Made by a program: the position numbers and the translations under genes. From the NCBI GenBank assembly GCA_001512885.1, contig LFSZ01000043.1:2314-66313 (forward strand): a stretch of 64,000 bases of DNA. The letters run 5' to 3'. Source of the DNA: Rikenellaceae bacterium DTU001 (GTDB lineage: Bacteria; Bacteroidota; Bacteroidia; Bacteroidales; DTU049). Shown here piece by piece: positions 1,494 to 18,363 of the stretch (positions are counted from its first letter, which is position 1; the number at the start of each line of letters is the position of its first letter). Under the pieces are notes generated by a model, which ran no database searches, was not told where the DNA came from, and saw only the letters and a program-made list of their open reading frames with translations.

Positions 1494-3240
1494 TTATTTT
1501 TTTATTGATTATCTCAGAGTTATTTCCATTTTCCTTAGATTTTTGCCATAGTTGCACTGCATCATCTATTAGATTTAGATGATAATAAATATCACCTGCA
1601 TGTTCTAAAATTTCTGGATCCGAATCATTATACATCAAAGCTTTATCTATCCATTTTTTTGCTTCATCATAATTTTTCATTTTAAATAAAATCCAAGCCT
1701 TAGTATCAATAAAAGAAAATCTAGTAGGTTCTGTTAGTAAAACCTCATCTATTAAATTTAATGCTTTATCCATCATAGTATCTTGTTGAGCCAAAAAATA
1801 TGCATAATTATTTTTGAGTACGAGATTCGCTGGATTAGCTTTTATTGCTTTTTCGAAATAATCGAATGCTTTGGCATATTCTCCTGTTTCATAGTAAGCG
1901 TTAGCTAGTAATTCTATAATAATATTTTGCAATTCTTTATTCTTAGAAGGTATATAGCTGAGTGCGTTTTCTAAATGTGGAATGCACTTTTCAAATTTTT
2001 TCTGCATAAAGGCAGCATAACCTGCATAAAAGTAAAATTCGCCTATATCAGGGTAAAAATTAAGCGCTTTATTAGCATAAAATAGCATACTATCATAATC
2101 ATTTTTAGCTTCATAAGACATAATGAGATTTCTATATGTCGCGTCATTAGTAGAGTCTAACTCAAGAGCTTTTTTGAAATAAACAATAGCAGTGTCTAAA
2201 ATGTTTTGTGCTTGATAATAAAAACCTATGATATTAAAAGTTTCGGCTTTATCGCTATGTAAATCTTCTAAATGATAAAATAATTGTTGTATAAATTGTT
2301 CATCTATATTGGGGTTTTCTATGCTTGTTAATATCACTTGCAGTTTGTCTTGAAAATCGACTCTTGGGTCCTTGATAGCTATTAACAATTCTTTTTTTAA
2401 CTCTTCTACTTTATTAATTGCAAAATAATAATTAGCAGCGAATAGCGCTGCATACCCATCGGTACTATCACGTTGTTTATACCATTGCACTAAACGGTAG
2501 AGAGCTGTTATTTTACCTTTTTCTATTGCAAATGAGGAATATTCTTTTTTGTAATCCAAATTAGACGGATCATATTGTATACATCTCCATAGCTCATCTA
2601 GAGCTTCATCACTCTTACCTAGCAATGAGTATATTTGATATTTATAAAAACCTATTTCCGGTATAAAGCCATGCTGCGATTCTAATTTCGTAAAGATTTC
2701 TAAGGCATTATTTGGCATAAAAGCTATTAAATACATTTGTGCAACATTTAAATAATAATCTAATATTTTAGGATTCTTAGATATTAATATCTCATATCGC
2801 TGTGCAGCTTCTCGGTATTTTCTTAATTTAACCAGTATATTGGCACTTAGTTCTAAATAATAAACATTTTCTGGTGATAATTTGATAGCAATATCGATAT
2901 ATTTATTTGCGCTATCCCATTTATTGTTTAGCTCATAATATTTACTAAGTAGATAATAAGCAACATCTTGCTTAGGATCTTTACTGATAATGTCAAATAA
3001 TATCTCTTTTGCTTGATCTAACTCATTTAGTAGTAAACATTTTTGTGCATCTAATAAAAGATTTTGTATCTCTACTGAGGCTTGCAAAGTTTTATTAGTA
3101 TCTTTTATTTTACAATTACTAAGTGAAAAGCTTAAAAATATTAATAATATAGGAATAATGACAAAGTTATATTTATTGATAAATTGTTTTTTTTCGTCTA
3201 TAATGATATCTGTAGATTTGATTTTTTTTGAATATTTCAT
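1468..3240 (-). CDS. TPR-repeat protein with N-terminal membrane anchor
   Basis: 590-aa ORF with many 34-residue A/Y/L-patterned repeats (e.g. AYYLLSKYYELNNKWDSANKYIDIAIKLSPEN, YFYAGYAAFMQKKFEKCIPHLENAL) and an N-terminal hydrophobic segment. Confidence 0.8.
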   Translation of the reverse strand: MKYSKKIKSTDIIIDEKKQFINKYNFVIIPILLIFLSFSLSNCKIKDTNKTLQASVEIQNLLLDAQKCLLLNELDQAKEILFDIISKDPKQDVAYYLLSKYYELNNKWDSANKYIDIAIKLSPENVYYLELSANILVKLRKYREAAQRYEILISKNPKILDYYLNVAQMYLIAFMPNNALEIFTKLESQHGFIPEIGFYKYQIYSLLGKSDEALDELWRCIQYDPSNLDYKKEYSSFAIEKGKITALYRLVQWYKQRDSTDGYAALFAANYYFAINKVEELKKELLIAIKDPRVDFQDKLQVILTSIENPNIDEQFIQQLFYHLEDLHSDKAETFNIIGFYYQAQNILDTAIVYFKKALELDSTNDATYRNLIMSYEAKNDYDSMLFYANKALNFYPDIGEFYFYAGYAAFMQKKFEKCIPHLENALSYIPSKNKELQNIIIELLANAYYETGEYAKAFDYFEKAIKANPANLVLKNNYAYFLAQQDTMMDKALNLIDEVLLTEPTRFSFIDTKAWILFKMKNYDEAKKWIDKALMYNDSDPEILEHAGDIYYHLNLIDDAVQLWQKSKENGNNSEIINKKINDKKYYAF

Positions 3241-3528
3241 TTTCCCTTAATATATTCGTAAGTTAATTATGCAAAATTAAAATTTAAAATTAATATAAAA
3301 AATTATTTAAATACTTAGATTTATTAAGATCTAATCTGTAATTGATAATTTACATCATTGATCGGATAAATAAATATATAGTTATTCAAAAAATGGAATT
3401 TCAAATAAGATTTATTGTATATTTGTTTTGTTATTTATGATTTTTAAACTTTTTTCTTTTACATAGTTTATTTCTGCTTATTTATAAATATTTTTACATT
3501 TAAAATAGTATTATTATTTCAAATTTAT

Positions 3529-3546
3529 TTGTTAATTTTGTAACAA
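3529..3546. promoter_or_regulatory. Candidate Rex-type operator (inverted repeat TTGTTA-N6-TAACAA)
   Basis: TTGTTAATTTTGTAACAA read directly from the sequence. It matches the Rex consensus TTGTGAAnnnnTTCACAA at 11 of 14 specified positions. It overlaps the -7 box of the hydrogenase-like operon, and a rex gene closes the same locus. The AT-rich background makes a chance match plausible. Confidence 0.3.
3533..3540 (+). promoter_or_regulatory. Bacteroidota-type -7 promoter box (TAATTTTG) for the hyd-like operon
   Basis: Matches TAnnTTTG. It lies 12 nt upstream of TTG(3553) and 24 nt upstream of ATG(3565). Confidence 0.4.
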
Positions 3547-3552
3547 TGTTAT

Positions 3553-4005
3553 TTGATAAACAATATGAGAATAATTTTACCTTTTACCATAAATGAATTA
3601 TTTAAGGAAGTATGGCACGTATATCCTAATTCTCTCATAGATTTTTGTGCTAAAATAATGTTAGAGCCATATGCACTCTCTAAATCCCATTTTGATGAAT
3701 TAGAAATTTATTTTAAACAGCCTGCATCGGAGATTTATGCTTTTGTGGTTACTTGCTTCCCTGATTTATTAATATCCGATATCAATTATGACATAGTTAT
3801 GTGTAGAGGGTGGAATTGCTACCTAAAATATGGTAAAAATTTTTTAAATGAAGTTAATTACCAATTTAGAAATGAGTCAGAAAAACCAATTATAAAATTT
3901 CATAAATGTAATGGCAAATGCCATACAGATCAAATAGAATTAAATATAAATTCAGCTTTTTATAAAATCTTGAATAATATTAAAGAAAAAATTATAAAAA
4001 AATGA
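3553..4005 (+). CDS. NuoE/HydC-like thioredoxin-fold [2Fe-2S] ferredoxin subunit (divergent)
   Basis: The four-Cys pattern IVMCRGWNCYLKYG ... HKCNGKCH is C84-x4-C89-x29-C119-x3-C123. It mirrors the NuoE/HndA signature VCxGxxCxxxG ... CLGxCxxAP (canonical spacing about x35). The stop overlaps the next start (ATGA at 4002-4005). The start may be ATG 3565 rather than TTG 3553. Confidence 0.65.
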   Translation: MINNMRIILPFTINELFKEVWHVYPNSLIDFCAKIMLEPYALSKSHFDELEIYFKQPASEIYAFVVTCFPDLLISDINYDIVMCRGWNCYLKYGKNFLNEVNYQFRNESEKPIIKFHKCNGKCHTDQIELNINSAFYKILNNIKEKIIKK

Positions 4006-5873
4006 GCACTATAAAGCTTCAGTTAGGCTATGCTATCACCTCATTAGAATTGCAAAATATATGGGAAAAAGAGTTATTGTCTCTGCTCTCTCAAGATAAA
4101 CATTTTATTTTAAAAAATCATAGTACAGATTTATCGCCTAATGATGATGCTATTATAATAGAAACTTTTCCTAATACTGGATTAAAAGGATTTTTGTATG
4201 CCGAACCCTTAGTATGGATAAAACATCCACTCAAGCGTACTTTATGTTTCAGAAATTTAGAACCTGAGTTAATACCATGGATAATAGAATGTGTTGTAAA
4301 TCTTGATATAACTAGTTTGAAACCTTGGATACAATTAGATGATTATGGAGAAAGCTGGCCCCATATCCCTATAATAACTCAAATGCCTTGGTATGACAAG
4401 ATAGTGCCCTTTTTGACAAATTCTTTTTCTGGAGATGATTGGATAATAGACAATACAATTTTAGACAATACAAATATTGATTTCATCGTCTCTCTATATA
4501 ATAAAAAAAGTAGTGTAGAAGTAAAAGATTTAATTTTTAAGAGTAAGCTTATCGGTAGAGGTTCAGGTACTCTACCTATAGAAATCAAGTGGCAAGCTAT
4601 AGATGAGCAATTAGCAGAAAAAAAATATTTAATAATAAATGCTAACGAATTCGGACCTAGTAGTCTAAGTAATTATTTTTTACTTCGATATTATCCTACA
4701 ATGATTCTAGAAGGTATAATAACCACTTGCTATGCTTTGCATATTAATAACGCCATAATAGCTATTCATCAAGACTATCTAGATGTTTATGAAGCTTTTA
4801 GTAAATTGATCAGCCAAGCCAAAGATTTAGGTCTATTAGGTGATGATATTTTAAATACTGGTAATTCTTTATCTATTGATGTAATGTTGACACCTGGTAT
4901 GTTAATTACAGGTGAAGAGACTGCCCTTATACATTTATTAGAATCTCAAATGCCTTTTCCTACTAATAAACCGCCATATCCCACTAGTTTAGGTTTGTGG
5001 GGACAGCCCACTTTAGTTCATAACGTAGAGACTATAGCAAATATTTCTCAAATAATAAAAACTGATAAATCTCTTGAAATCTACGCCCCCATTTCGAAGC
5101 AAGGGACTAAAGTAGTAACTCTATGTGGAGAAATAAATAATTATGGCGTTTACGAAATATCTATGGATATCAGTATAGATGAGGTAATAAACAAAATAGG
5201 TGGTGGACTTAATAATTCAAATAAAATAAAAGGCTTTCACATTGGAGGAGTTACTGGGAGATTTTTTGATCTAGATAACTTGGATAAATCTCTTTATGAT
5301 TTAGAAAAACAAACTAATTATTTAGGTACATCTACTATTTTTACTTTTTCAGAAGAGCAATGTATCGTTAAACTTTTACAACATATATCAGAAATACTTA
5401 CAGAGCAAAGTTGTGGTAAATGTATACCATGCTTATATGGATCTAGGGTATGGTCTGAGCTGATTAGTTATCTATCATTAGCTAATAATCCCCAAATTCC
5501 CCATTTTCCTTTATATAGATTAAAAACTATTTTATCATTTAATAAATTAGATCGTACTGTTACTGAATCTTCACTATGTGCATTAGGCAAAAGTCTTTCG
5601 CAAACATTCATATCAGCATATAATTTTTTCAAAGATGAAATCGAAGAGCATATATTTGATAAATATTGTCGTTCTTATCAATGTGTAGGATTGAGAAATT
5701 ATATTATAGATGAAGATGCATGTACTGGATGTGGACTTTGTATAGTAGAATGCCCTGTAAATGCTATAATAGAAAAACGAATAAATCTATTTGTTATTTT
5801 AGATGGTAAATGTGTAGGCTGCGGTTTATGTGAAAAAGTTTGTAAGTTTTCAGCTATAAATTTAAAAAAATGA
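4002..5873 (+). CDS. NuoF/HydB-like subunit with C-terminal 2x[4Fe-4S] ferredoxin domain; flavin/NADH motifs divergent
   Basis: NuoF signature blocks are present: GRGSGTLPIEIKW, NANEFGPS, ITGEETALIHLLES, PPYPTSLGLWGQPTLVHNVET, SCGKCIPC and SLCALGKS. The C-terminus carries CTGCGLCIVECP and CVGCGLCEKVC. The N-terminal Trx-like domain has no cluster cysteines (TGLKGFLYAEPLVWI). Confidence 0.85.
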   Translation: MSTIKLQLGYAITSLELQNIWEKELLSLLSQDKHFILKNHSTDLSPNDDAIIIETFPNTGLKGFLYAEPLVWIKHPLKRTLCFRNLEPELIPWIIECVVNLDITSLKPWIQLDDYGESWPHIPIITQMPWYDKIVPFLTNSFSGDDWIIDNTILDNTNIDFIVSLYNKKSSVEVKDLIFKSKLIGRGSGTLPIEIKWQAIDEQLAEKKYLIINANEFGPSSLSNYFLLRYYPTMILEGIITTCYALHINNAIIAIHQDYLDVYEAFSKLISQAKDLGLLGDDILNTGNSLSIDVMLTPGMLITGEETALIHLLESQMPFPTNKPPYPTSLGLWGQPTLVHNVETIANISQIIKTDKSLEIYAPISKQGTKVVTLCGEINNYGVYEISMDISIDEVINKIGGGLNNSNKIKGFHIGGVTGRFFDLDNLDKSLYDLEKQTNYLGTSTIFTFSEEQCIVKLLQHISEILTEQSCGKCIPCLYGSRVWSELISYLSLANNPQIPHFPLYRLKTILSFNKLDRTVTESSLCALGKSLSQTFISAYNFFKDEIEEHIFDKYCRSYQCVGLRNYIIDEDACTGCGLCIVECPVNAIIEKRINLFVILDGKCVGCGLCEKVCKFSAINLKK

Positions 5874-7453
5874 AAATTAATATTACAGTAAATAATCAAA
5901 AATACAAAGTAGATCTAGGGGAAAATCTACTAAATGCTTTACTTTCTTTAGGCTATGATATTCCACATCTTTGCTATTTAGAAAATTACTCCCCAAATTA
6001 TGCTTGCAGATTGTGCATGGTAGAAATTGATGGATTTAATAATCCTATTCAAGCTTGTACTGTTGATGTAAACACACCACTGCAGGTTTACACTCATACT
6101 CCGAAGCTAATAAATATTCGTAAGAATATATTAGAATTAATCTTGTCACAACATTCATTAGAATGTAATACATGTCCTAAGGCTATTAATTGCAGTTTAT
6201 TAAATTATGCATATCAATATGGTGTAAACGAAATTATTTGGAGACATGTGATTACCGATTCCAAGGAAAAAGATATATCTAGTCCTGTGATAGCTAAAAA
6301 TATAAATAAATGCATCTCTTGTGGTATTTGTGTTAAAATTTGTAATGAAATGATGCATTGCAATGTATTTAATCATGCTTTTATTGGTACTAAAAAAACT
6401 ATTATTTCTTCTTTGGATAAACCTATAAATTTATCTAATTGTTACTACTGTGGACAATGCTCTTATCATTGTCCTACTAGTGCTTTATATGAAAAATCAT
6501 ACATTGATAATGTGGAGATAGATCCACAAAATACTACCTTAATATTTGACTCTGCTGCTGTTTACAACTTGATGTCTCAGATTAATAGTAATTTTACAAA
6601 AAATCCTATTTTATCATTTAATTATTTATGTCAATTCTTAGGTTTTAAAAAATTAATTAATTTAGGAGAATTAATAGATGCTAAATTATATTTAGATTTT
6701 CAACTTTTAAAAGATAGAAAACACCCTATCATTTCTAATTTATGTCCTGTCAGTATAGAATATATTAAACAAAAATATCCAGAATTAATTGAATTTATCA
6801 GTCCTTTAGCTTCCCCAATGCAGGCTGCAATTAGATTGACTAATAAAAGTAATCCTATCCTGATACTCACTAATTGTTCGGCTTACAAAAATGATATTTT
6901 TCAAAATTATAGTAATACTGAGCACAAAATTTATGTTGCTAATGTAAGAGATTTTTTAAAATATTTATTGCGAAATGGCTATACATTAGAACAATTAAAA
7001 AATTTGATTCCTAACATCAAAGCTAAAAAAAACTATTCATATTCTATCGGCGGACTGTATGCTGATATATCAATGTATAATTTATTAAAATTAATTTTAG
7101 ATGAAACCAATATACAAATAGATAAACCCTCAAAAATTAATAGTTTTTTAACAGGAAAAAATGAAAATAAAAAGTATAATTTTAGATTAAAAAATAAAAA
7201 TTATTCTTTAATAAGCATTAATACAATAAGTGAGATTGCAAATTTTTTTGATCATGAATTTTTAAAAACAAATTTAGCATTAATAGGATGCTGGAGCTGT
7301 GCTAATGGATGCATTAATGGTGGAGGCAAAACTTTCGAAATATTTAAAACTACAAATAAAAGTTTATCCTCAAGAAATCCCTTGCTCACCCAAATTTATA
7401 ATATTAATGAAGATTTAATAATTCAAGAGAAATTATGGAAACAAGAAAATTAG
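5870..7453 (+). CDS. [FeFe]-hydrogenase HydA-like protein (2Fe-2S + His-ligated 4Fe-4S + 2x4Fe-4S + H-domain) with non-canonical L1/L2/L3 motifs
   Basis: Cluster patterns read from the sequence: C35-x10-C46-x2-C49-x13-C63, H95-x3-C99-x2-C102-x5-C108, CISCGICVKIC and CYYCGQCSYHC. H-domain motifs are ISNLCPVS (canonical TSCCPxW), LTNCSAYKND (MPCxxKxxE), ASPMQ and LIGCWSCANGCINGGGKT (ExMACxxGCxxGGGQP). The start overlaps the upstream stop (ATGA). Confidence 0.8.
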   Translation: MKINITVNNQKYKVDLGENLLNALLSLGYDIPHLCYLENYSPNYACRLCMVEIDGFNNPIQACTVDVNTPLQVYTHTPKLINIRKNILELILSQHSLECNTCPKAINCSLLNYAYQYGVNEIIWRHVITDSKEKDISSPVIAKNINKCISCGICVKICNEMMHCNVFNHAFIGTKKTIISSLDKPINLSNCYYCGQCSYHCPTSALYEKSYIDNVEIDPQNTTLIFDSAAVYNLMSQINSNFTKNPILSFNYLCQFLGFKKLINLGELIDAKLYLDFQLLKDRKHPIISNLCPVSIEYIKQKYPELIEFISPLASPMQAAIRLTNKSNPILILTNCSAYKNDIFQNYSNTEHKIYVANVRDFLKYLLRNGYTLEQLKNLIPNIKAKKNYSYSIGGLYADISMYNLLKLILDETNIQIDKPSKINSFLTGKNENKKYNFRLKNKNYSLISINTISEIANFFDHEFLKTNLALIGCWSCANGCINGGGKTFEIFKTTNKSLSSRNPLLTQIYNINEDLIIQEKLWKQEN

Positions 7454-9432
7454 AATATCATCAATTAGTTTTTACAGTACAAAATAGATGCAAGGTTTGT
7501 TATACTTGTGTTAGAGAATGTCCAGCTAAAGCTATAAGGATATTTAACGGGCAAGCTGATATTTTACCAGATAGGTGCATTACCTGTGGCAACTGCATAA
7601 AAGTTTGTAGTCAAGGCGCCAAAGATTTTGTAAAGCACTCTGATGAGGTCGATGAGCTTTTACAAACAAATGAAAAAGTAGCTGCATTAGTAGCGCCAAG
7701 CTTCCCATCCGAATTTTCTGATTTCAAAACTCATAATAATTTTGTAGGTTTATTAAGAAAACTTGGTTTTGACTATATTTACGAAGTGGCTTTCGGTGCC
7801 GACTTAGTAGCTCATACATTTAAAAAACTAATAAAAGCTAATCCAGATATGCAATATATCACTTCAGATTGCCCTGCAATAGTGAAATTTGTTAAAAAAT
7901 ATTATCCTGAACTGACAGAAAATTTATTACCTGTATGCTCGCCTATGAATGCAATGAATAGAGTAGTAAAAAATATGTTTGACTATAATATTAAAACTAT
8001 TTTTATAGGACCTTGTATCGCCAAAAAAGATGATTGGGAAGAGGTGGATTTCAAAATTACTTATCGTGAACTTAGAAGTTTAATTCAAAAACATAATATT
8101 GAAATAGAAAATATAGAACCTTCAACTTTCGACCCTCCTTATGGAGGTTTAGGAGCCATATTTCCTGTATCTAGAGGGCTGATACAAGCTGTAGACATTG
8201 ATGATAAACTCTATAAAAGTAATATAATAGCTGCTGAAGGCAGAGAAGATTTTCAAGAAGCTCTGAAAGAATTTTATTCAAAAACTTGGGGCAAAGAAAA
8301 CCTTGAACTTTTGTGTTGTGATGGCTGCATAATGGGGCCAGGAACTACTTCTTTGAGTAATAGATTTGCTAAGGAGGCTTTCGTTACTAATTATGTTAAA
8401 AGAAAATTAAAAAATATTGATTGGGAAGAATGGGAAAATAATTTAAACTATTGGATGGAAACACTTGATTTATCTGTAGAATATTATCCCTCCCCTATTG
8501 AAGATTTAATACCAAGTGAAGAGGAAATCAGATCTGTTTTAATTGAATTAGGTAAATCTACTCCCGAAGATGAACTCAATTGTGGTGCTTGTGGATACAA
8601 TACTTGTAGAGAGCATGCTATAGCGATAATAAAAGGTATAGCTGAAACCGAGATGTGCCTTCCATATACTATAGACAGATTGCATAGCCTATTAGAAGAA
8701 TTAAATATCTCAAACAAAGAATTGCGAGATGCCCAGGAAGCTCTGAAAAAAACTGAAAAATTAGCAACTATGGGACAATTAAGTGCTGGCATAGCTCATG
8801 AACTCAATAATCCCCTCGGTGTTATAATAATGTACGCAAATATTCTTTATGAAGAATGTCCGCCCGATGACCCTAAAAGAAAAGATCTAGAAATGATAGT
8901 CTCGCAAGCCGAGAGATGTAGGCAAATTGTTAAAGGATTACTTAATTTTGCTAGAAAAAATCAAGTTGTTTATGAAAAAATAAATATACAAAATCTATTT
9001 GATAAAGCTATTAATTCTGTTATAATACCTGAACATATTACAGTAAAAACCAAAGTTGATCCGCCAGATCTCGAAGGATATATAGACATAGAACAAATGC
9101 TACAAGCCATTACTAATCTTATTCAAAATTCAATAGATGCTATTGGCAATAAAAAAGGTGAAATCATATTAGAAGCTCAGACTAAAGATAACTATTTGGC
9201 AATCTCAGTATATGATAATGGTGTTGGGGTACCCGATAGTGATTTATCAAAAATTTTTGAACCATTTTTTACAACTAAACCCGTGGGCAAAGGGACGGGG
9301 TTGGGTTTGGCTACCGTTTATGGAATCATTAAAATGCATAGGGGCAAAATAGAAGTGGAAAGCAATGCTGATCCGTCTAAAGGGCCTACATATACTAAAT
9401 TTTATATCTTTATACCTCAAAGTAAAAATTAA
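7435..9432 (+). CDS. Sensory [FeFe]-hydrogenase-like protein fused to histidine kinase (2x4Fe-4S + H-domain + Cx2Cx4Cx16C module + HisKA + HATPase_c)
   Basis: Ferredoxin motifs [12 protein letters not shown] and [12 protein letters not shown]-domain motifs [17 protein letters not shown] and [14 protein letters not shown] four-Cys module CGACGYNTC...x16...C at aa 383-408. H-box [10 protein letters not shown] (His455, nt 8797-8799). N/G boxes [16 protein letters not shown] and GKGTGLGLA. It overlaps the upstream gene by 19 nt. Confidence 0.85.
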
Positions 9433-9473
9433 TAATTTTATATAAAAAATAAAATATTATTAAAGCCAAAAAT

Positions 9474-9908
9474 ATGATATCATTAAGTAGTTTTAAAAAA
9501 AAAATAAAAATTATGGAAAAAATAAAAATTTTATTAGTAGATGATGATCCCGATTTTTCTGATCAAATGTTATTTTATCTAAATAAATTTGGTTATAATA
9601 CAATATATTTACCTTCGCAAAGATCAGCTGAAAGTCGTCTGAAAGATTTAAAATTTGATCTTGCTATCATAGATTTGATGATGGAAGAGGAAGATAGTGG
9701 ACTACAATTAGCTCGAAAAATCAAATCAAACTATCCAGACATACCTATTATATTACTTACTGCTATCACTAATGAAACAGGGTATTCACTTTCTAATGAA
9801 TTTGATAATTCGCCAGAATTAATGCCTATAGATAAATATTGTGAAAAAGGTATCAGGCCTGAGGTATTAAATAAAATAATCCAACAATTATTAACAAATA
9901 AAAAATAA
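9474..9908 (+). CDS. Stand-alone response-regulator receiver (CheY-like, no output domain)
   Basis: Receiver pattern KILLVDDDPDF ... DLAIIDLMM ... PIILLTA, with no additional domain. The probable true start is ATG 9513 (MEKIKILLVDDD). Confidence 0.85.
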   Translation: MISLSSFKKKIKIMEKIKILLVDDDPDFSDQMLFYLNKFGYNTIYLPSQRSAESRLKDLKFDLAIIDLMMEEEDSGLQLARKIKSNYPDIPIILLTAITNETGYSLSNEFDNSPELMPIDKYCEKGIRPEVLNKIIQQLLTNKK

Positions 9909-9913
9909 AGGTT

Positions 9914-11065
9914 ATGATATACAATATTTTAATAGTAGATGACGAAGAAGGCATTAGAATGGCAATAAAAAGAGCATTAGAAAAACATCGGATAGATTTT
10001 CCATTTTTAGATGAACCTATCAAATTATCGCTATATGAAGCAGAGAGTGCTGAGAGGGCTTTAGAAATTTTGTCTGATACTCACATGGATATTATATTAT
10101 TAGATAATAAATTGCCAGGAATGCAAGGTATCGATATTATGCCTTATCTAAATGAGCATTATCCTGATACTAAAATACTAATCATTACTTCCTTTGCCTC
10201 ATTAGATATAGCATTAGAAGCTACTAAACATGGAGCTTTTGATTTCATTCCCAAACCTTTTACTCCACAGGAACTAAAAAATGCTATCGAGATAGCTAGC
10301 AAACAAATATATCTAAATAGTATAATAAAAGATATGGATAAAGAAGCTAGAAAAATACGCTTCAAATTTCTTTCTATTTTGTCGCATGAGCTCAAAACCC
10401 CCATAACTACCCTAGAAGGATATATTTATATGATAAAAGAAAAGCAATTAGGTGATAATATAGATAATTATATGGAATTAATAGACAAAATGCTTAATAA
10501 ATTAGAAGAAATGAGAACTCTGATAATGGATCTTCTAGACTTCACTAATTTGCAAGCCGAAAGCACTATAGGAGAAAAAGAATTGTTATCATTAAAAGAA
10601 ATTATCATGTTTTCTATTGATAGTCAACGACCATTAGCTATTCAAAAATCTATAACTTTCGATATAGATATAAAAAGTCCATTAAATATTTTTGCTAGTA
10701 AAAATGAAATGGAAATATTATTTAATAATTTAATAAATAATGCAATAAAATACAATAAAAATAACGGTAAAATAATAATAAAAGGCGAAGAAAATGATAA
10801 TAATATAATAATAAAAATAAAAGATACAGGTATTGGTATCAATGAAAATGATTTACCACATATTTTTGATGAATTCTATAGAACAGTAGATGCTAAATCT
10901 CGTCGTTTATCTGGTACTGGACTGGGACTTTCTATCGTAAAAAAAATGATAGAATTGTATAATGGAACTATAGAGGTAGAGAGCAAAGTTAATGAATACA
11001 CAGAATTTACCATTATTTTACCTAAAATAGAAGATAATAAAACTAAAAATTTTATTGATAATTAA
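9914..11065 (+). CDS. Hybrid receiver-histidine kinase (N-terminal REC + HisKA + HATPase_c)
   Basis: REC pattern ILIVDDEEGIR ... DIILLDNKLPGMQG ... ILIITS ... KPF. H-box LSILSHELKTPIT. N/G boxes NNLINNAIKY, DTGIGI and GTGLGLSIV. Confidence 0.85.
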   Translation: MIYNILIVDDEEGIRMAIKRALEKHRIDFPFLDEPIKLSLYEAESAERALEILSDTHMDIILLDNKLPGMQGIDIMPYLNEHYPDTKILIITSFASLDIALEATKHGAFDFIPKPFTPQELKNAIEIASKQIYLNSIIKDMDKEARKIRFKFLSILSHELKTPITTLEGYIYMIKEKQLGDNIDNYMELIDKMLNKLEEMRTLIMDLLDFTNLQAESTIGEKELLSLKEIIMFSIDSQRPLAIQKSITFDIDIKSPLNIFASKNEMEILFNNLINNAIKYNKNNGKIIIKGEENDNNIIIKIKDTGIGINENDLPHIFDEFYRTVDAKSRRLSGTGLGLSIVKKMIELYNGTIEVESKVNEYTEFTIILPKIEDNKTKNFIDN

Positions 11066-11098
11066 AAGTCTTTTTTATTAATTATAAATTTCACTAAT

Positions 11099-11719
11099 AT
11101 GATATTACCAGAAAAAACAATAGAACGTTTAAGTAAATATAGAAGGGTATTGATAAACCTAAATTTTCAACAAAAAGATTATATCTATTCACATGAATTA
11201 GCTAATCTGATTCATATAACTCCCGAACAAGTAAGAAGGGATATGATGTTAATAGGACATAGCGGTACACTTAGAAGGGGTTATGAAGTTAAACAATTAA
11301 TAGAAAAGATAAATTCTATAATAGATGGTAACACAGTACAATATGTTACTCTAGTAGGTGTTGGTAATTTGGGACGTGCAATGCTCAATTATTTAAAAAA
11401 TAAAAATAAATATTTGCAAATAATAGCTTGCTTTGACAATGACCAGGATAAAATTAATAAAATGTGTTGTGGTATACCTTGTTATTCTATCAATGAAGCA
11501 GAAGAACAAATAAAAAAGTTAAATATAAATATTGCTATATTGACAGTCCCAACAAATGTAGCTAACGAAGTAGCTGATATTTTAATTAAGGCAGGCATTA
11601 AAGGATTATTAAATTTCACTACTATGCCTTTAAAAGTGCCATCCAACGTATATCTAGAAGAATATGATATGATAACATCTTTGGAAAAAGTTGCTTACTT
11701 TACACAATTTATTGAATAG
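11099..11719 (+). CDS. rex: Redox-sensing transcriptional repressor Rex
   Basis: N-terminal winged-helix block IPEKTIERLSKYRRVL ... SHELANLIHITPEQVRRDM, followed by the Rossmann motif VTLVGVGNLGRAMLNY. The 206-aa length is typical. Confidence 0.85.
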   Translation: MILPEKTIERLSKYRRVLINLNFQQKDYIYSHELANLIHITPEQVRRDMMLIGHSGTLRRGYEVKQLIEKINSIIDGNTVQYVTLVGVGNLGRAMLNYLKNKNKYLQIIACFDNDQDKINKMCCGIPCYSINEAEEQIKKLNINIAILTVPTNVANEVADILIKAGIKGLLNFTTMPLKVPSNVYLEEYDMITSLEKVAYFTQFIE

Positions 11720-11788
11720 AACCAAAATAATTAAAAAAAAAGTAAATGCTAAATAAATGAGTAAGTATTTTTTTTTAAAAAAATAAAA

Positions 11789-12700
11789 ATGCATATATAT
11801 TATAGCTTTGATGAAGATTTTGAAATATCTAATCCTGTTGTAACGATTGGCACTTTTGATGGTGTGCATGCTGGACACAGAGCTATATTGAAAAGATTAA
11901 ATATATTAAGTCAAAAAGTAAATGGTGAGTCTGTACTGATAACTTTTTATCCTCATCCTCGCAAAGTATTATATCCTGATACCTTAGGTAAAAATTTAAA
12001 AATGATCTGCACTCAAAATGAAAAAATACATCTATTACAAGAGACTAAATTGAATCATCTATTTATAATACATTTTACTAATGAATTTTCTAAAATTACC
12101 GCTGAGCAATTCGTTAGAAATTTTTTAGTAAATAAATTGCACGCTAGAGTCATAGTAGTTGGTTTTAATCATCATTTCGGCTACGACAAACAAGGTGACT
12201 ATGAATATTTATATGAATTACAACAATATTTTGGATTTCAAGTAGAGGAGATACCACAACAAGAGATAGAAAAAGAGACTGTATCATCTACTAGAATCAG
12301 ACAAGCTCTAAGCCAAGGATTGATACAAAAAGCTAATGCTTACTTACAATCTCATTTTCCCTTTTTCGGTGTTGTAACTGAAATAAACCCATTAGACAAT
12401 AAATTGACAAAAATAAAAATCAAAACTGATGAAATAGAAAAAATAGTACCACCGATAGGTTTATATGCTGGAGTTTTGCAAATGGATATTAAAAAAATTA
12501 AATGCTTAATAATCACAAATGAAATTGATGAGAATATCATACCATTTATTGAAATAATTTTTCAAGGTGAAATAAATATCACATTAGGAGATAATGTACG
12601 TGCATTTTTTGCAAAAGAATTACAATTATATGATAAAATAGATAATTTGCATAAGAGTATTAATGAGTATATAACATTAATAAATGAATTGATATATTAA
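11789..12700 (+). CDS. ribF: RibF-type FAD synthetase (FMN adenylyltransferase module intact; riboflavin-kinase module degenerate)
   Basis: The N-terminal motifs GTFDGVHAGH, FYPHP and SSTRIR are present. In the C-terminal half the expected GRxLGFPTAN, NIGxRPT and LRxE motifs are replaced by DNKLTKIKIK, ITNEIDE and AKELQ. Confidence 0.75.
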   Translation: MHIYYSFDEDFEISNPVVTIGTFDGVHAGHRAILKRLNILSQKVNGESVLITFYPHPRKVLYPDTLGKNLKMICTQNEKIHLLQETKLNHLFIIHFTNEFSKITAEQFVRNFLVNKLHARVIVVGFNHHFGYDKQGDYEYLYELQQYFGFQVEEIPQQEIEKETVSSTRIRQALSQGLIQKANAYLQSHFPFFGVVTEINPLDNKLTKIKIKTDEIEKIVPPIGLYAGVLQMDIKKIKCLIITNEIDENIIPFIEIIFQGEINITLGDNVRAFFAKELQLYDKIDNLHKSINEYITLINELIY

Positions 12701-12738
12701 AGATATTTATTTTTTTTAAAAAAAAAGTCCCAAAAATA

Positions 12739-13413
12739 TTATAAATTTTGAATTTCGACTTTAAAAATTTCAGAAAAAATATCTAAAATATATTTTTTTA
12801 CTTCATTTATATCTACCTCATACCCTAATTCTTTAGCTATAGATGTTACTCCTTTGCCAGTAATACCACATGGATTTATATATGAAAAGTATTTTAGATC
12901 TGTATTTACATTAAATGCAAAGCCATGCATAGTAATATTTCTAGTAATTCGAATACCGATAGAGCAGATTTTTCTAGCCTTTGGTGTATTAGGATCTAGC
13001 CATACACCTATAGAGCCGCTCATTCTATCTCCCTTTATTCCATATTTATCTAATACATTAATTATCACTTCTTCGACATTATAAACATACTGTTTGGGTC
13101 CTATTTTTAGTTTCATCAGATCGATTATCGGATAACCAACAATCTGTCCTGGTCCATGATAAGTAATGTCACCCCCTCTATCAGTTTTTACTAATTCCGC
13201 ATTAATCTTTTCTAATAATTGAGGTGAAATGAGCAAATTATCTTCTTTACCATGTTTTCCAAGGGTATAAACATGTGGGTGCTCAAGTAATATTAAATAA
13301 CCAATAAAATCAGGTTCATTTTTCTTATTGAAAACTTCATCAACTTTTTTTAATTGATACTGGTAAGCGTCATCGAATCGCTTATTACCGAGATCTACAA
13401 TTTTTATATTCAT
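12739..13413 (-). CDS. lipB: Octanoyltransferase LipB
   Basis: RGGDITYHGPGQIVGYPI, KICSIGIR and HGFAFNV are typical LipB blocks. Confidence 0.9.
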   Translation of the reverse strand: MNIKIVDLGNKRFDDAYQYQLKKVDEVFNKKNEPDFIGYLILLEHPHVYTLGKHGKEDNLLISPQLLEKINAELVKTDRGGDITYHGPGQIVGYPIIDLMKLKIGPKQYVYNVEEVIINVLDKYGIKGDRMSGSIGVWLDPNTPKARKICSIGIRITRNITMHGFAFNVNTDLKYFSYINPCGITGKGVTSIAKELGYEVDINEVKKYILDIFSEIFKVEIQNL

Positions 13414-14823: not shown

Positions 14824-17800
14824 CTAATAACACAATGGCAGGATAATCGTAAATTTTGTCCCCTCACCTAAAAGACTTTCTACCAATATTTTACCATTTA
14901 AGTCTTCGATTATATGCTTTACTATTGCTAAGCCTAGTCCGGTACCAGATGATTTAGTAGTGAAATTGGGTTCAAATATATTTTCTAGCATCTCATTGGC
15001 GATTCCGATACCATTATCAGAAATTATAATTATAGCATTATTATTATCTGATTTAGCATAAATGTTTATCTCTCCGCGTCTTTCATTTGATAGAGCTTGC
15101 ACGGCATTTTGCAATATATTAGTAAAAGCTCTATTTAGTCTACTCTCATCTCCTATTACTGTCAATTTATCAGATTCTAAATGAATATTAATATCATAAT
15201 CTGTACTATGAAACAGGGCAGCTAAATTTTGTAAAAGTGTTATGAGATTTACTTCCTTGCTTAATGGTTCTGGCATTTTATTAAATTGAGAAAATGCTGT
15301 TGCTATTTCAGATAATTGTTCTATTTGTTCTAGAAGTGTTGTTAAGTATTTTTCGATATCTTGTTCAAATCTTTTTTTATCTTGCTTCCATATTCTTTGC
15401 AAAAATTGAACACTTAGCTTCATAGGTGTAAGAGGATTTTTTATTTCATGAGCTACTTGTTTTGCCATTTCTCTCCAAGCTATTTCTCTTTCGTTCTGAG
15501 CCAGCTTTTCAGCTTTTTCAGCTAATTCATCTATCATTTGATTATATTGCTTTACTAATTGTCCTATCTCATCATTACTTTTGTATTCTATTTTTTCATT
15601 TTGTTTAGATAAATTTAGTGATTTTAGCCTTTTACTTATTAATTGCAAGGGTCTATTTATATATTGTGTTATTAAAAAAGTAAAAATTAGAGAAATCAAG
15701 AGTAAAATGGCATAAATATTTATAAAAGCACCTATTAGCTCACTCAATTCTCCCCGTAATTCTGTGATCTGGCTAAACATAGGTATAGACAATATGCCTA
15801 TTATATTATTACCTCTAAATACTGGCATATATGTATTGCGATATTCAAACTCACTTATTTTTTCTTTATTTGAGTAATACCAATACTTTTTCCATTTGTT
15901 TGTCCAATAAACATCTGGATTTATCAATGTTGTTAACAAATGATCGTTAAACAATGCAAATTGTGTCGTTGATAATAAAGTGCCATCTGTATTATAAAAA
16001 TGTAAATCCGAAAAGTAAGAGTATTTATATTTCCATAACAGTGAATCTATGCTGGTCGAGTTGATTTTTATATTATTTTTTACGATTTCGTCTTGTAATG
16101 ATAAGTACAATCCATAATTGCGCTCAAAACATTGTTTTTCTAATTGCCGTGAGTATGTGTTTTGTATATATTTGACAGACAAAATACCTGCTACCAAAAT
16201 GACAATAGTAATAATACTGATCAATGTGATTTGTAATCTACCCGCATAACTTCTAAAAATCTTTTTAATGTTAATACCTTTTATTAATATGTAATAAATT
16301 AAATAAAGCAATAGAATTATTATAATAAAAAATGAAAAGATACTCAACCAATTTGGTAAAGTGTGATTAGACACTAACACAATAAATCTATTATTGTCTA
16401 TTTCGCTTTTGATGGCGTATTTATCATGATATTTAAATAATTTGCCAATAGGAGCTGCATCTATTTCATTATCTACTTGTAAAGGAAAAATTGTATTACC
16501 ATAGCTCTGCATTAATGTATTATTATAGTATGTAGCATAATCTAGCTGTCCAGGGAGTAATTGCTCTTCCTCTATATTTACTAATAATTCTAAATATCCT
16601 TCTGGTCTAAAAGGTTTCTTTTTGTAAAGTTCTAAATATAATTGGTGTGGTAGCTCACTATGAAGCATGATTTTGTATAAATAGTAAGTAATATTGGCAT
16701 TAGTAATGAAATATAAATTATCTGATATGTGCTGTGCTTGCGAATACTCCACTATGCTATCATAATATTGCCAGCAATTGATTTCTAAATTATTATTTAA
16801 AAATTTATCATGACTACTACAGATGAAACCTATGATATCATACTGATCTTGAAATGAGGATAAGTAGTGATTTTTTATATGTGTCAGCCATTGCATACTG
16901 GTATCGAAGCTATTAGCATAATTCACTAAAAATCTATCAGCAGATATTTCAGTTTGGAGTTCATTTAAGTGATTTTCTAGTATCAAATCTCGCTCAGAGC
17001 TTATTTTTACAGCATTTAAGAGTAAATAATTCGAAAAACTCTGATGATGCACTCGCATAAATAAAAAACTACTAATAGCTACTATCATACCACTAAAAAT
17101 ATAAATAAAATAGCGCCTAAACGACTTCTTATTCATAGATGATAATAGGTACATTATCAGCCAAAGTAAGATCCCTAACATCGAGATAATAAGATAAAAA
17201 TTTTGATTTTTTAATAAAAAAATCAAAAAAATTGTATAAAAAGCAAAACCACTATAAACTATTTTTTTGGGTGGTTTGTGAGTTAGCATCAATCTGATCG
17301 ACCATGTCCATATGACCAGTAGGGATATAGCTAAAATTATTACAAATATAATATCCACTTTTGTAGATATCCATTCATAATAGCTATAGGGAAATTCAGT
17401 TGCATTGAATATGCGAGATAGCCAGATAAAAATATTACCAGAGAAAAATATTGAGGTTACAAAACAGAAAAGCCTTTTGTAATCATTAGGTAATAGCTTG
17501 ATAGCAATCTTGATAATTAGAGCAGCTAGCCACACTAATAAAAATGTTTTACCTATATTGTTAAAAATAAGAGATAATGCAAAAAATGAAGGATTAAAAA
17601 CATAATATTTGGTAGATAAAAAATTAGTAAGTATCCATAATAACCCGATAATCGTTAATATTAAAATTAAAAGGACAAAGATTTTATTACTAGCTTTCCA
17701 TTTATTTATCAATGCAGAAATCAAAAGATACAAACCAAATAAAAACAAAATAAAACTTAATAATGCAATGAAATTTTGAGTTTTAGTAGGCTGAATATCC

Positions 17801-18363
17801 CGAGGAATAAATTCTAAATTTTCTAAAACATTATTATTTTTATTATTTATTTTTAATTCAAAAGCTGCTAATGGGTCTATTTTTTTATTTATCTTATTTG
17901 TTAAATAATTATTTTTAATTGGATAACTTTCTTGTAATTGCCAGCTCAAAATCAATTTATAATTTTCAAACTCTTGGCTGTAACATAAAAAAATACCCCT
18001 CTCACTCTCAGCTACCCATTGCTGCGCTGTTAAATTATTAATTATAAAGTCATTAGTAGACCAATAGATCAAACTGTCTGCATCATATATCCAAACACCA
18101 GCCTTTATATTATTAATATTTTCTAACTCCTGTTGTAGACTACTCCAATCATTATTGATTATTAATTTAATGATAGCAGTATCATTTACAAAACTTTTTA
18201 GTTCATTCCATTGTTTTTCAACTTTTTTTGATAAATTATTTTTATTTATTGACTGATAAAGTGGATAAAATGTATGATTAATAGTAAATACTAAAACACT
18301 TATCAGAAGTATCCACAGGCTTAATTTTAATTTTTTATTAATTATATAATCAATTTTGATCAC
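14824..18363 (-). CDS. Large multi-pass membrane sensor histidine kinase (HAMP-like linker + HisKA + HATPase_c, NtrY-like core)
   Basis: 1179 aa with many hydrophobic helices across roughly aa 190-450 and 660-900. H-box VAHEIKNPLTPM. N/G boxes NILQNAVQA, DNGIGI and GTGLGLAIV. No adjacent response regulator. Confidence 0.8.
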   Translation of the reverse strand: MIKIDYIINKKLKLSLWILLISVLVFTINHTFYPLYQSINKNNLSKKVEKQWNELKSFVNDTAIIKLIINNDWSSLQQELENINNIKAGVWIYDADSLIYWSTNDFIINNLTAQQWVAESERGIFLCYSQEFENYKLILSWQLQESYPIKNNYLTNKINKKIDPLAAFELKINNKNNNVLENLEFIPRDIQPTKTQNFIALLSFILFLFGLYLLISALINKWKASNKIFVLLILILTIIGLLWILTNFLSTKYYVFNPSFFALSLIFNNIGKTFLLVWLAALIIKIAIKLLPNDYKRLFCFVTSIFFSGNIFIWLSRIFNATEFPYSYYEWISTKVDIIFVIILAISLLVIWTWSIRLMLTHKPPKKIVYSGFAFYTIFLIFLLKNQNFYLIISMLGILLWLIMYLLSSMNKKSFRRYFIYIFSGMIVAISSFLFMRVHHQSFSNYLLLNAVKISSERDLILENHLNELQTEISADRFLVNYANSFDTSMQWLTHIKNHYLSSFQDQYDIIGFICSSHDKFLNNNLEINCWQYYDSIVEYSQAQHISDNLYFITNANITYYLYKIMLHSELPHQLYLELYKKKPFRPEGYLELLVNIEEEQLLPGQLDYATYYNNTLMQSYGNTIFPLQVDNEIDAAPIGKLFKYHDKYAIKSEIDNNRFIVLVSNHTLPNWLSIFSFFIIIILLLYLIYYILIKGINIKKIFRSYAGRLQITLISIITIVILVAGILSVKYIQNTYSRQLEKQCFERNYGLYLSLQDEIVKNNIKINSTSIDSLLWKYKYSYFSDLHFYNTDGTLLSTTQFALFNDHLLTTLINPDVYWTNKWKKYWYYSNKEKISEFEYRNTYMPVFRGNNIIGILSIPMFSQITELRGELSELIGAFINIYAILLLISLIFTFLITQYINRPLQLISKRLKSLNLSKQNEKIEYKSNDEIGQLVKQYNQMIDELAEKAEKLAQNEREIAWREMAKQVAHEIKNPLTPMKLSVQFLQRIWKQDKKRFEQDIEKYLTTLLEQIEQLSEIATAFSQFNKMPEPLSKEVNLITLLQNLAALFHSTDYDINIHLESDKLTVIGDESRLNRAFTNILQNAVQALSNERRGEINIYAKSDNNNAIIIISDNGIGIANEMLENIFEPNFTTKSSGTGLGLAIVKHIIEDLNGKILVESLLGEGTKFTIILPLCY

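Follow-up and report, generated by a model that had tools for sequence, protein, structure and literature searches.

The window analysed here is a 64,000-nucleotide stretch (64 kb) of contig LFSZ01000043.1 from Rikenellaceae bacterium DTU001, and its subject is an operon that encodes a fusion of a hydrogenase domain to a histidine kinase (HydS-HK), preceded by three genes resembling the subunits of the electron-bifurcating [FeFe]-hydrogenase HydABC (hydC, hydB and hydA, together HydCBA). The window has a G+C content of about 28% and encodes Bacteroidota markers recognized with Pfam, namely a type IX secretion system (T9SS) sorting domain, DUF4292 and BamA. Seven co-directional open reading frames (ORFs) occupy positions 3553-11719 on the + strand (Table 1), as a first-pass annotation of the sequence had proposed, and their positions bear out the ATGA overlaps at 4002-4005 (hydC/hydB) and 5870-5873 (hydB/hydA), the 19-nt overlap at 7435-7453 (hydA/hydS-HK) and, with these, the translational coupling of the first four genes. 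Domain calls were made with Pfam and NCBIfam, and they agree with that annotation on the second H-domain protein fused to a kinase and on the stand-alone receiver (REC), the receiver-histidine kinase hybrid (REC-HK) and Rex that follow it. Of the three HydABC subunit types that it named, HydB and HydA were recovered with Pfam but the first gene was not recognized as NuoE by either library, and is identified as HydC through profile-profile comparison and synteny. The architecture of this operon is already known; what is new is its HydCBA. This has genuinely been remodelled, progressively and in a lineage-specific way, under purifying selection.

In a survey that took a single genome for each GTDB species, relatives of the HydS-HK fusion turned up in at least 594 species genomes, and the best 80 loci were classified; loci are numbered L001-L088, L001 being that of Tenuifilaceae CYCD, a relative with a complete genome. 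These best 80 relatives are nearly all titled Bacteroidota, one contig being labelled Thiohalospira, and among the more than 7900 homologues of the fusion those with a named source are annotated Bacteroidales or Bacteroidota. The gene-neighbourhood comparison suggested by the first-pass annotation found the seven-gene order HydC-HydB-HydA-HydS/HK-REC-REC/HK-Rex conserved in 54 of the 61 Bacteroidota species genomes that could be evaluated, and HydC-HydB-HydA-HydS/HK present in 67 of 68 evaluable loci. In most related loci ribF lies directly after rex, and hydG and a hydE-like gene stand just downstream in many. The window locus represents an operon widespread in Bacteroidales, hydC-hydB-hydA-hydS(HK)-REC-REC/HK-rex-ribF. 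A divergent sensory module accompanies it in 43 of 54 evaluable loci, comprising a PP2C (SpoIIE) phosphatase, a PAS-less H-domain protein of approximately 625 residues (HydS2) and a small, 2Fe-2S thioredoxin-like HydC (for example L001:2157-5515, minus strand, upstream of hydC). This module and the adjoining hydG are absent from the clade to which the window belongs (the window clade), and no other hydrogenase or PP2C module was found within the 64-kb window.

Table 1. Features of the operon and conservation of its products. Positions are those of the window. Identity is the median to orthologues outside the window clade; the family norm is the identity of the CYCD locus (L001) to the other loci; conserved columns for HydS-HK are those at least 90% conserved in 79 orthologues.
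Feature	ORF	Likely extent	Strand	Basis	Identity (%)	Family norm (%)	Conserved columns kept (%)	Conserved Cys kept
Rex-operator-like palindrome TTGTTAATTTTGTAACAA		3529..3546	.	19 nt upstream of likely hydC start				
hydC (g1), diverged HydC/NuoE-like [2Fe-2S] subunit, 146 aa, Cx4C...Cx3C	3553-4005	3565..4005	+	profile-profile, synteny	17	47	30	4/4
hydB (g2), HydB/NuoF-like subunit	4002-5873	4002..5873	+	Complex1_51K 1e-29, NADH_4Fe-4S, 2x Fer4	31	53	58	15/18
hydA (g3), HydA-like subunit	5870-7453	5870..7453	+	Fer2_4, NADH-G_4Fe-4S_3, Fer4, weak Fe_hyd_lg_C	25	51	57	19/19
hydS-HK (g4), HydS-HK fusion	7435-9432	7435..9432	+	2x Fer4, Fe_hyd_lg_C 2e-46, FeS domain PF04060, HisKA, HATPase_c	52.5	62	90	18/18
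rec (g5), stand-alone receiver, REC only	9474-9908	9513..9908	+	Pfam Response_reg				
rec-HK (g6), receiver-histidine kinase hybrid	9914-11065	9914..11065	+	REC-HisKA-HATPase_c (Pfam)				
rex (g7), Rex	11099-11719	11099..11719	+	PF06971 + PF02629; NF003995 199 bits (cut-off 126)	53	62.5	82	1/1
ribF, FAD synthetase, conserved eighth gene		11789..12700	+	Pfam FAD_syn 1.6e-46	45	48	90	no conserved Cys

The unit of NuoE-like, NuoF-like and HydA-like genes is present in the window on the evidence of domains, profile-profile comparison and synteny with canonical HydCBA. Its first product had no Pfam or NCBIfam match even at E<=10, and we regard it as a diverged HydC because several kinds of comparison agree. 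Profile-profile alignment with HydC (hhalign) covers 121 columns with a probability of 88% and an E value of 3e-6, and aligns four cysteines; BLASTP against the syntenic HydC aligns the cysteines of Cx4C...Cx3C (E 6e-4); the top matches in the Protein Data Bank (PDB), which are weak, are NfnC and the 24-kDa subunit of complex I; and the gene occupies the place of PF01257 genes in relatives. Homologues of this protein amount to two clusters among 5.8 billion proteins. A model built with AlphaFold2 (AF2) from a three-sequence alignment had a predicted local distance difference test (pLDDT) score of 56, falling below 50 in the C-terminal half, and a Foldseek search with it returned nothing significant.

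All three subunits have diverged far beyond the norm for the operon family, as identity to the CYCD proteins illustrates: 54% for the sensor, 28% for HydA, 32% for HydB and 23% for HydC. In HydB the flavin mononucleotide (FMN) loop GRGGGGFPTG (GRGGxGFPTG) has become GRGSGTLPIE, and the NADH/FMN loop NADESDPGAF (NADExxPGxF) has become NANEFGPSSL, so the erosion of flavin and NADH motifs noted at first pass is real; recognizable versions of these motifs are kept in 64 orthologues outside the clade. HydB keeps intact its NuoF-type [4Fe-4S] motif, SCGKCIPC with the downstream cysteine, as well as both ferredoxin-type clusters at its C-terminus. Two of the three conserved cysteines lost from HydB belonged to ICNADE and VCGEETAL, which are not cluster-ligand motifs.

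HydA has been altered in a comparable manner. With substitutions in both H-domain proteins referred to the reference positions C299, M353, K358 and M497, its P1 motif TSCCP reads SNLCP (C299L), P2 (MPCxxKKFE, or MPCxxKxxE) reads TNCSAYKND (M353T, K358Y) and P3 (ExMxCxxGCxxGGGQP) reads GCWSCANGCINGGGKT, in which ExMxC is replaced by GCWSC (M497W). Of the H-cluster signatures only the four cysteines survive. The APS, SPQQ and GGV-EA-LR motifs are missing and the C-terminal small-subunit-like tail is truncated, while all N-terminal iron-sulphur (Fe-S) ligands are kept together with the four cubane cysteines. The match to Fe_hyd_lg_C is weak and partial (6.7e-14, profile positions 60-245), and phmmer aligns only residues 3-320 with HydA chains of solved structure in the PDB. 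An AF2 model of HydA with a pLDDT of 59.9 has as its best match 8a6t_A, the HydA of Thermoanaerobacter kivui HydABC (E 9e-25); this confirms the HydA fold as modelled, although a model of such low confidence says little about the cofactor pocket. Across HydCBA 38 of 41 conserved cysteines are kept, including every Fe-S ligand motif checked. As far as motifs can tell, HydCBA of the window lineage has retained its Fe-S wiring, whereas the FMN and NADH motifs are gone, as are almost all residues of the H-cluster motifs other than cysteine.

These genes are under purifying selection. Ratios of non-synonymous to synonymous substitution rates (dN/dS) were measured between L002 and L004, a pair for which dS is unsaturated (0.2-0.3), and are 0.085 for HydC, 0.077 for HydB and 0.074 for HydA, that is, about 0.08; between the window and L002 they are 0.10-0.14, with dS saturated. 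Neither frameshifts nor stops interrupt the HydCBA ORFs across three species-level lineages that belong to the clade. The extreme form is limited to a narrow clade: HydA homologues comprise three 90%-identity clusters, after which identity drops to 29%. The eroded state persists across lineages in which the sensor proteins are only about 59% identical. In two sister lineages, L084 and L088, HydB bears the window clade's NEFGP signature, and HydA reads SSSCP or TSSCP and lacks the small-subunit-like tail (HydA of L088 reaches the contig end). Trees of HydS-HK, HydB and HydA each put L084 nearest to the window clade. L088 is a short contig that does not include hydS; it falls with the clade in the tree of HydB, but in that of HydA does not do so at the innermost levels. 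Patterns of erosion in L086 and L087 differ from that of the window clade. Given the intermediate forms in L084 and L088 and the different patterns in L086 and L087, loss of HydCBA motifs is old and vertically inherited, and possibly recurrent. At L086:3225-8790 an eroded HydC-HydB-HydA is followed directly by Rex and RibF, and HydB there has no C-terminal ferredoxin domain.

Departure from the canonical active site extends well beyond this clade. The four cubane cysteines are present in all 76 operonic HydA orthologues (76/76), and the canonical C299, M353 and K358 in 21 of the 76. A further 26 have A299, T353 and M358, paired with GRSGGG and NAKESDPGAF in HydB, and position 299 is Asp in nine of the 76 and His in five. 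Altogether two-thirds of the operonic HydA orthologues are without the canonical proton-relay Cys or Lys. A literature search found no description of natural HydA of the SACP or SDCP type in Bacteroidales.

Some variants of the operon stand apart. In L047, L059, L066, L071, L074 and L075, a sub-family without rex-ribF, extra REC (and HK) genes lie upstream of hydC, and HydA and HydB are canonical; where the downstream sequence is covered, a hydG-like gene comes right after REC-HK, joined in three loci by a hydE-like gene. In L042, from an uncultured Lentimicrobium, HydB and HydA are apparently fused in an ORF of 1178 residues upstream of HydS-HK.

The sensor kinase is conserved to a very different degree from its upstream neighbours (Table 1), and most of its substitutions are conservative. 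Its N-terminal [4Fe-4S] ligands (C19/22/25/29 and C48/51/54/58) are kept, the H-domain motifs read TSDCP, GPCIAKK and LLCCDGC with all four H-cluster cysteines in place, and D145, C146, C194, C294 and C298 are invariant in a nine-sequence alignment. As had been pointed out at first pass, neither H-domain protein of the window contains TSCCP. In HydS-HK position 299 is Asp, which is invariant in the nine aligned members, M353 is replaced by Gly and M497 by Leu, and the APS motif and the P2 lysine (K358) are retained. A C-terminal Cx2Cx4Cx16C motif (C383/386/391/408) is of the kind characteristic of M2e/M2f sensory enzymes (PMC8163306). The kinase retains H455 and the N, G1 and G2 boxes, and dN/dS is 0.06-0.08 (0.083 for L002 vs L004). 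Downstream, D23/D24, D67, T96 and K125 of the stand-alone receiver are conserved among 80 orthologues, and D64, T92, K114, H158 and the N/G1/G2 boxes of the REC-HK hybrid among 76. By these residues the sensor and relay proteins look functional.

Rex combines a winged-helix N-terminus with a Rossmann NAD(H) domain, and both GxGxxG and the DNA-binding N-terminus are conserved among orthologues. Upstream of hydC, the first-pass annotation had proposed a Rex site at 3529-3546, and this is a perfect palindrome, TTGTTA-N6-TAACAA. It is the sole match in the 64-kb window to TTGTNAAN4TTNACAA at <=1 mismatch, against a chance expectation of 1.18; the match count alone is not above chance, and the case for an operator therefore depends on position and conservation. 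We compared 67 related loci, taking <=250 nt upstream of hydC, with random 280-nt windows from the same loci as controls. A box matching at >=10/12 positions occurs upstream of hydC in 69% of the loci and 5% of controls, and one matching at >=11/12 in 39% and 1.1%, respectively. The published Rex motif of Thermoanaerobacterium, TTGTTANNNNNNTAAC, has the form TTGTTA-N6-TAAC and occurs upstream of hfsABCD and hydG among other genes (PMC5886521). Our palindrome matches this motif type, and 3529-3546 is strongly supported as the putative cognate Rex operator of the operon. Promoters in Bacteroidetes have a -7 element with the consensus TAnnTTTG. The palindrome contains TAATTTTG, which fits that element and would suit repression by promoter occlusion.

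We consider it probable that the locus is a Rex-gated, H2-sensing phosphorelay operon in which a former bifurcating hydrogenase now serves as a flavin-less Fe-S relay module; the first-pass reading of the locus as an H2- and redox-sensing signalling unit likewise fits the protein families involved. Rex would bind the conserved palindrome overlapping the promoter and leave the DNA as NADH/NAD+ rises, so that transcription of the operon would track the NADH pool and Rex would regulate itself. HydS-HK would bind an H-cluster, and H2 would shift the redox state along its chain of clusters, one of which (Cx2Cx4Cx16C) stands just before the kinase helices. This change would set autophosphorylation at H455, from which phosphate would pass to the stand-alone REC, to the REC of the second kinase or to both, and the second kinase would in turn signal to a response regulator encoded elsewhere. 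HydCBA, ancestrally an NADH- and ferredoxin-dependent bifurcating hydrogenase, would have ceased to act as one and become a flavin-less iron-sulphur electron relay, most plausibly linking the ferredoxin pool to the co-translated sensor or another partner and not producing H2 in bulk. A relay is suggested because the FMN/NADH site and H-cluster residues have been lost while the Fe-S cysteines and purifying selection are kept. It may serve the sensor, since hydA and hydS-HK overlap and the operon evolved as a unit, or it may equally act independently, since L086 keeps eroded HydCBA with Rex and RibF and has no sensor in the 13.4 kb covered.

Several points weigh against this interpretation. The missing motifs do not by themselves demonstrate that FMN or the [2Fe] subcluster is gone, and an unusual H-cluster in HydA is conceivable because K359 stands beside the lost K358 and the four H-cluster cysteines are kept. 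The AF2 models of HydC and HydA are of low confidence. The first-pass annotation had remarked that the locus encodes no DNA-binding response regulator, and Pfam agrees; neither DNA-binding nor enzymatic response regulators were present in the window locus or in the classified related loci. The maturation genes hydE, hydF and hydG were not found within the 64-kb window. Finally, no HydS-HK, REC or REC-HK lies in the 13.4 kb covered at the L086 locus, which argues against a role for HydCBA that depends on the sensor and bears on the first-pass suggestion of a scaffold adapted for sensing or very slow turnover. A bolder proposal seems doubtful to us: that a bifurcating hydrogenase was converted stepwise in a single Bacteroidales lineage into a non-catalytic Fe-S scaffold, forming with the hydrogenase-kinase a four-protein complex that would compare H2 with the ferredoxin pool, with Rex adding an NADH term, and that most 'HydABC' of the operon family would not be conventional hydrogenases.

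Three other explanations can be set beside the relay. The diverged HydCBA might still be a working hydrogenase with an unconventional active site (ferredoxin-only, non-bifurcating or slow, or using another proton path), the operon being then a hydrogenase and its regulators. The four H-cluster cysteines, the complete Fe-S ligands and purifying selection are all compatible with this, as is the number of operonic HydA proteins that lack C299 (having A, D, H or S) or K358 (M, R or A); because many of these orthologues vary at 299 and 358 beside hydG and hydE, non-canonical sites may be tolerated in the family. Putative sensory enzymes of groups C and D without C299 still bind an H-cluster (PMC8163306). 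HydA of the window has, however, undergone C299L, K358Y, M497W and M353T together, and its APS, SPQQ and GGV-EA-LR motifs and its tail are gone; phmmer does not recognize its H-domain beyond residue 320, and the flavin and NADH loops of HydB are unrecognizable. Mutagenesis of CpI and CrHydA1 has reportedly left C299 variants other than Asp, and K358 variants, inactive or cofactor-free, which also counts against a working enzyme. We hold this explanation to be unlikely.

It is less likely still that the HydCBA-like genes have acquired a new role outside H2 sensing, for instance as a Rex-controlled, ferredoxin-linked oxidoreductase or electron-transfer complex left in its old operon. L086 speaks for this idea, having eroded HydCBA with rex-ribF and neither sensor kinase nor receivers in the 13.4 kb covered, and erosion seems to have arisen more than once, the residue patterns of L086 and L087 being different. 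Set against it are the hydA/hydS-HK overlap (19 nt, or 13 nt in L002) and the translational coupling of four genes, the evolution of the operon as a unit, with the HydS-HK, HydB and HydA trees all placing L084 closest to the window clade, and the failure of Pfam and NCBIfam to find any new domain or motif hinting at another substrate. That hydC, hydB and hydA are merely decaying relics of an unneeded hydrogenase is very improbable. They are far more diverged than their neighbours, and the PP2C/HydS2 module and adjoining hydG are missing from the clade; dN/dS (0.07-0.14) is nevertheless the same as for the sensor kinase, three species-level lineages have reading frames free of frameshifts and stops, selective retention covers 38 of the 41 conserved cysteines and the eroded state persists where sensors are only about 59% identical. 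A pseudogene reading was rejected on the grounds of dN/dS and cysteine retention.

The first-pass annotation had supposed that this combination of genes might be undescribed. It is instead the standard Bacteroidales layout (54/61), kinase-linked group C enzymes form a named HydDB subgroup, and similar clusters have been published. HydDB names C1 'histidine kinase-linked' and C3 'phosphatase-linked' putative sensory [FeFe] hydrogenases (PMC5037454). In Elusimicrobia, genes for a trimeric group A enzyme lie beside an HATPase-fused group C hydrogenase with Rex nearby, and are related to those of Ignavibacterium and Caldithrix (10.1101/765248); Hydrogenedentota have BfuABCT/BfuTABC clusters in which the T subunits carry PAS or His-kinase domains (PMC11406978); the C1 enzyme of Petrimonas mucosa, a member of the Bacteroidales, adjoins hnd genes (PMC7768429); and Caldithrix abyssi has rex and a Rex box in a bifurcating-hydrogenase operon (PMC5317091). 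These group C kinase-linked and group A3 clusters resemble the window in having an H-domain-HisKA/HATPase protein beside NuoE-, NuoF- and HydA-like genes, with Rex in the cluster and a Rex box upstream, and their function has been proposed from genomics only. The described A3 clusters are, however, treated as functional bifurcating hydrogenases, whereas the trimeric genes of the window and its sisters are without flavin, NADH and catalytic-site motifs. Our literature search found no biochemical study of the kinase-fused HydS type.

Among characterized proteins, TmHydS of Thermotoga maritima (M2f/group C) and TamHydS of Thermoanaerobacter mathranii (M2e/group D) share with HydS-HK two N-terminal [4Fe-4S] motifs, a four-Cys H-domain and a C-terminal Cx2Cx4Cx16C; none of the three has C299, other residues stand in place of M353 and M497 (Gly and Leu in HydS-HK), and all are encoded next to HydABC genes (PMC8163306). 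HydS-HK differs in having Asp at 299 and a directly fused kinase, where TmHydS has a PAS domain and TamHydS no signalling domain (PMC8163306). The group C sensory hydrogenase of Ruminococcus albus, which occurs with a Ser/Thr phosphatase, is likewise a putative H2 sensor (PMC6776011), and hfsABCD of T. saccharolyticum, with its Rex box, is a like case of Rex control over fermentative hydrogenase genes (PMC5886521). Unlike the R. albus type, the window clade has no PP2C-linked module, and signalling would proceed through the fused kinase and two receiver proteins. In Cupriavidus necator, the [NiFe] system HoxBC-HoxJ-HoxA couples a slow, sensor-type hydrogenase to a histidine kinase that controls hydrogenase genes through a known DNA-binding regulator, HoxA. 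The logic is alike, but the metal centre and the proteins are unrelated, and sensor and kinase are separate polypeptides there. An analogy for HydA alone is offered by eukaryotic Nar1/NARFL (IOP1), a hydrogenase-like Fe-S protein in which the cluster cysteines persist and the surroundings of the [2Fe] subcluster do not, and whose Fe-S role is not that of a hydrogenase. This belongs to an independent lineage, and HydA differs from it in its full NuoG-like N-terminal cluster chain and its HydABC-type operon setting.

Anoxic and gut microbiomes contain abundant putative sensory [FeFe] hydrogenases, and the kinase-fused type provides a testable readout in autophosphorylation. The window lineage constitutes a natural experiment in which the catalytic partner has shed flavin and active-site residues and conserved its Fe-S wiring, and this suggests a second role, as electron relay or scaffold, that is able to outlive catalysis. 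Annotation based on domains would count the remodelled genes as bifurcating hydrogenases, and one clade member indeed carries the name 'NADP-reducing hydrogenase subunit HndD'. Because two-thirds of operonic HydA proteins are without the canonical Cys or Lys, estimates of how much H2 environmental Bacteroidales can produce may be too high.

Some details of the locus and its surroundings remain. The likely start of hydC is ATG 3565 (the ORF opens with TTG at 3553) and that of rec is ATG 9513 (the ORF opens at 9474); both are preferred because the lengths then match those of orthologues. An AT-rich gap of 80 nt (9433-9512) separates HydS-HK from the likely REC start, compared with 231 nt in L002 and 3 nt in CYCD, and an internal promoter in this gap is possible in the window clade. 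No RNA family was found by an Rfam scan of 3000-13000, and there were no further meaningful repeats upstream of the operon; scans for sigma-70 promoters and terminators performed no better than on shuffled sequence, Bacteroidota promoters lying outside the coverage of the models. The C-terminal third of RibF is poorly conserved across the operon family, and a Pfam Flavokinase match is found in CYCD RibF, with none for RibF of the window (E<=0.01) or the L002 and L003 orthologues. Joint erosion of the RibF flavokinase domain with the flavin site of HydB was considered and rejected, the C-terminal region being equally divergent in all relatives.

The genes flanking the locus are unrelated to it. 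Elsewhere in the window there are two orphan sensor kinases with no adjoining response regulator, one of 1179 residues at 14824-18363 (-) with HAMP-HisKA-HATPase domains and one at 42580-44631 (+) with TPR-HisKA-HATPase. At 48996-51980 (+) a secreted protein of 994 residues has a GH18 (chitinase-like) domain, a T9SS sorting domain at its C-terminus and a CUB domain, which is an uncommon type in bacteria.

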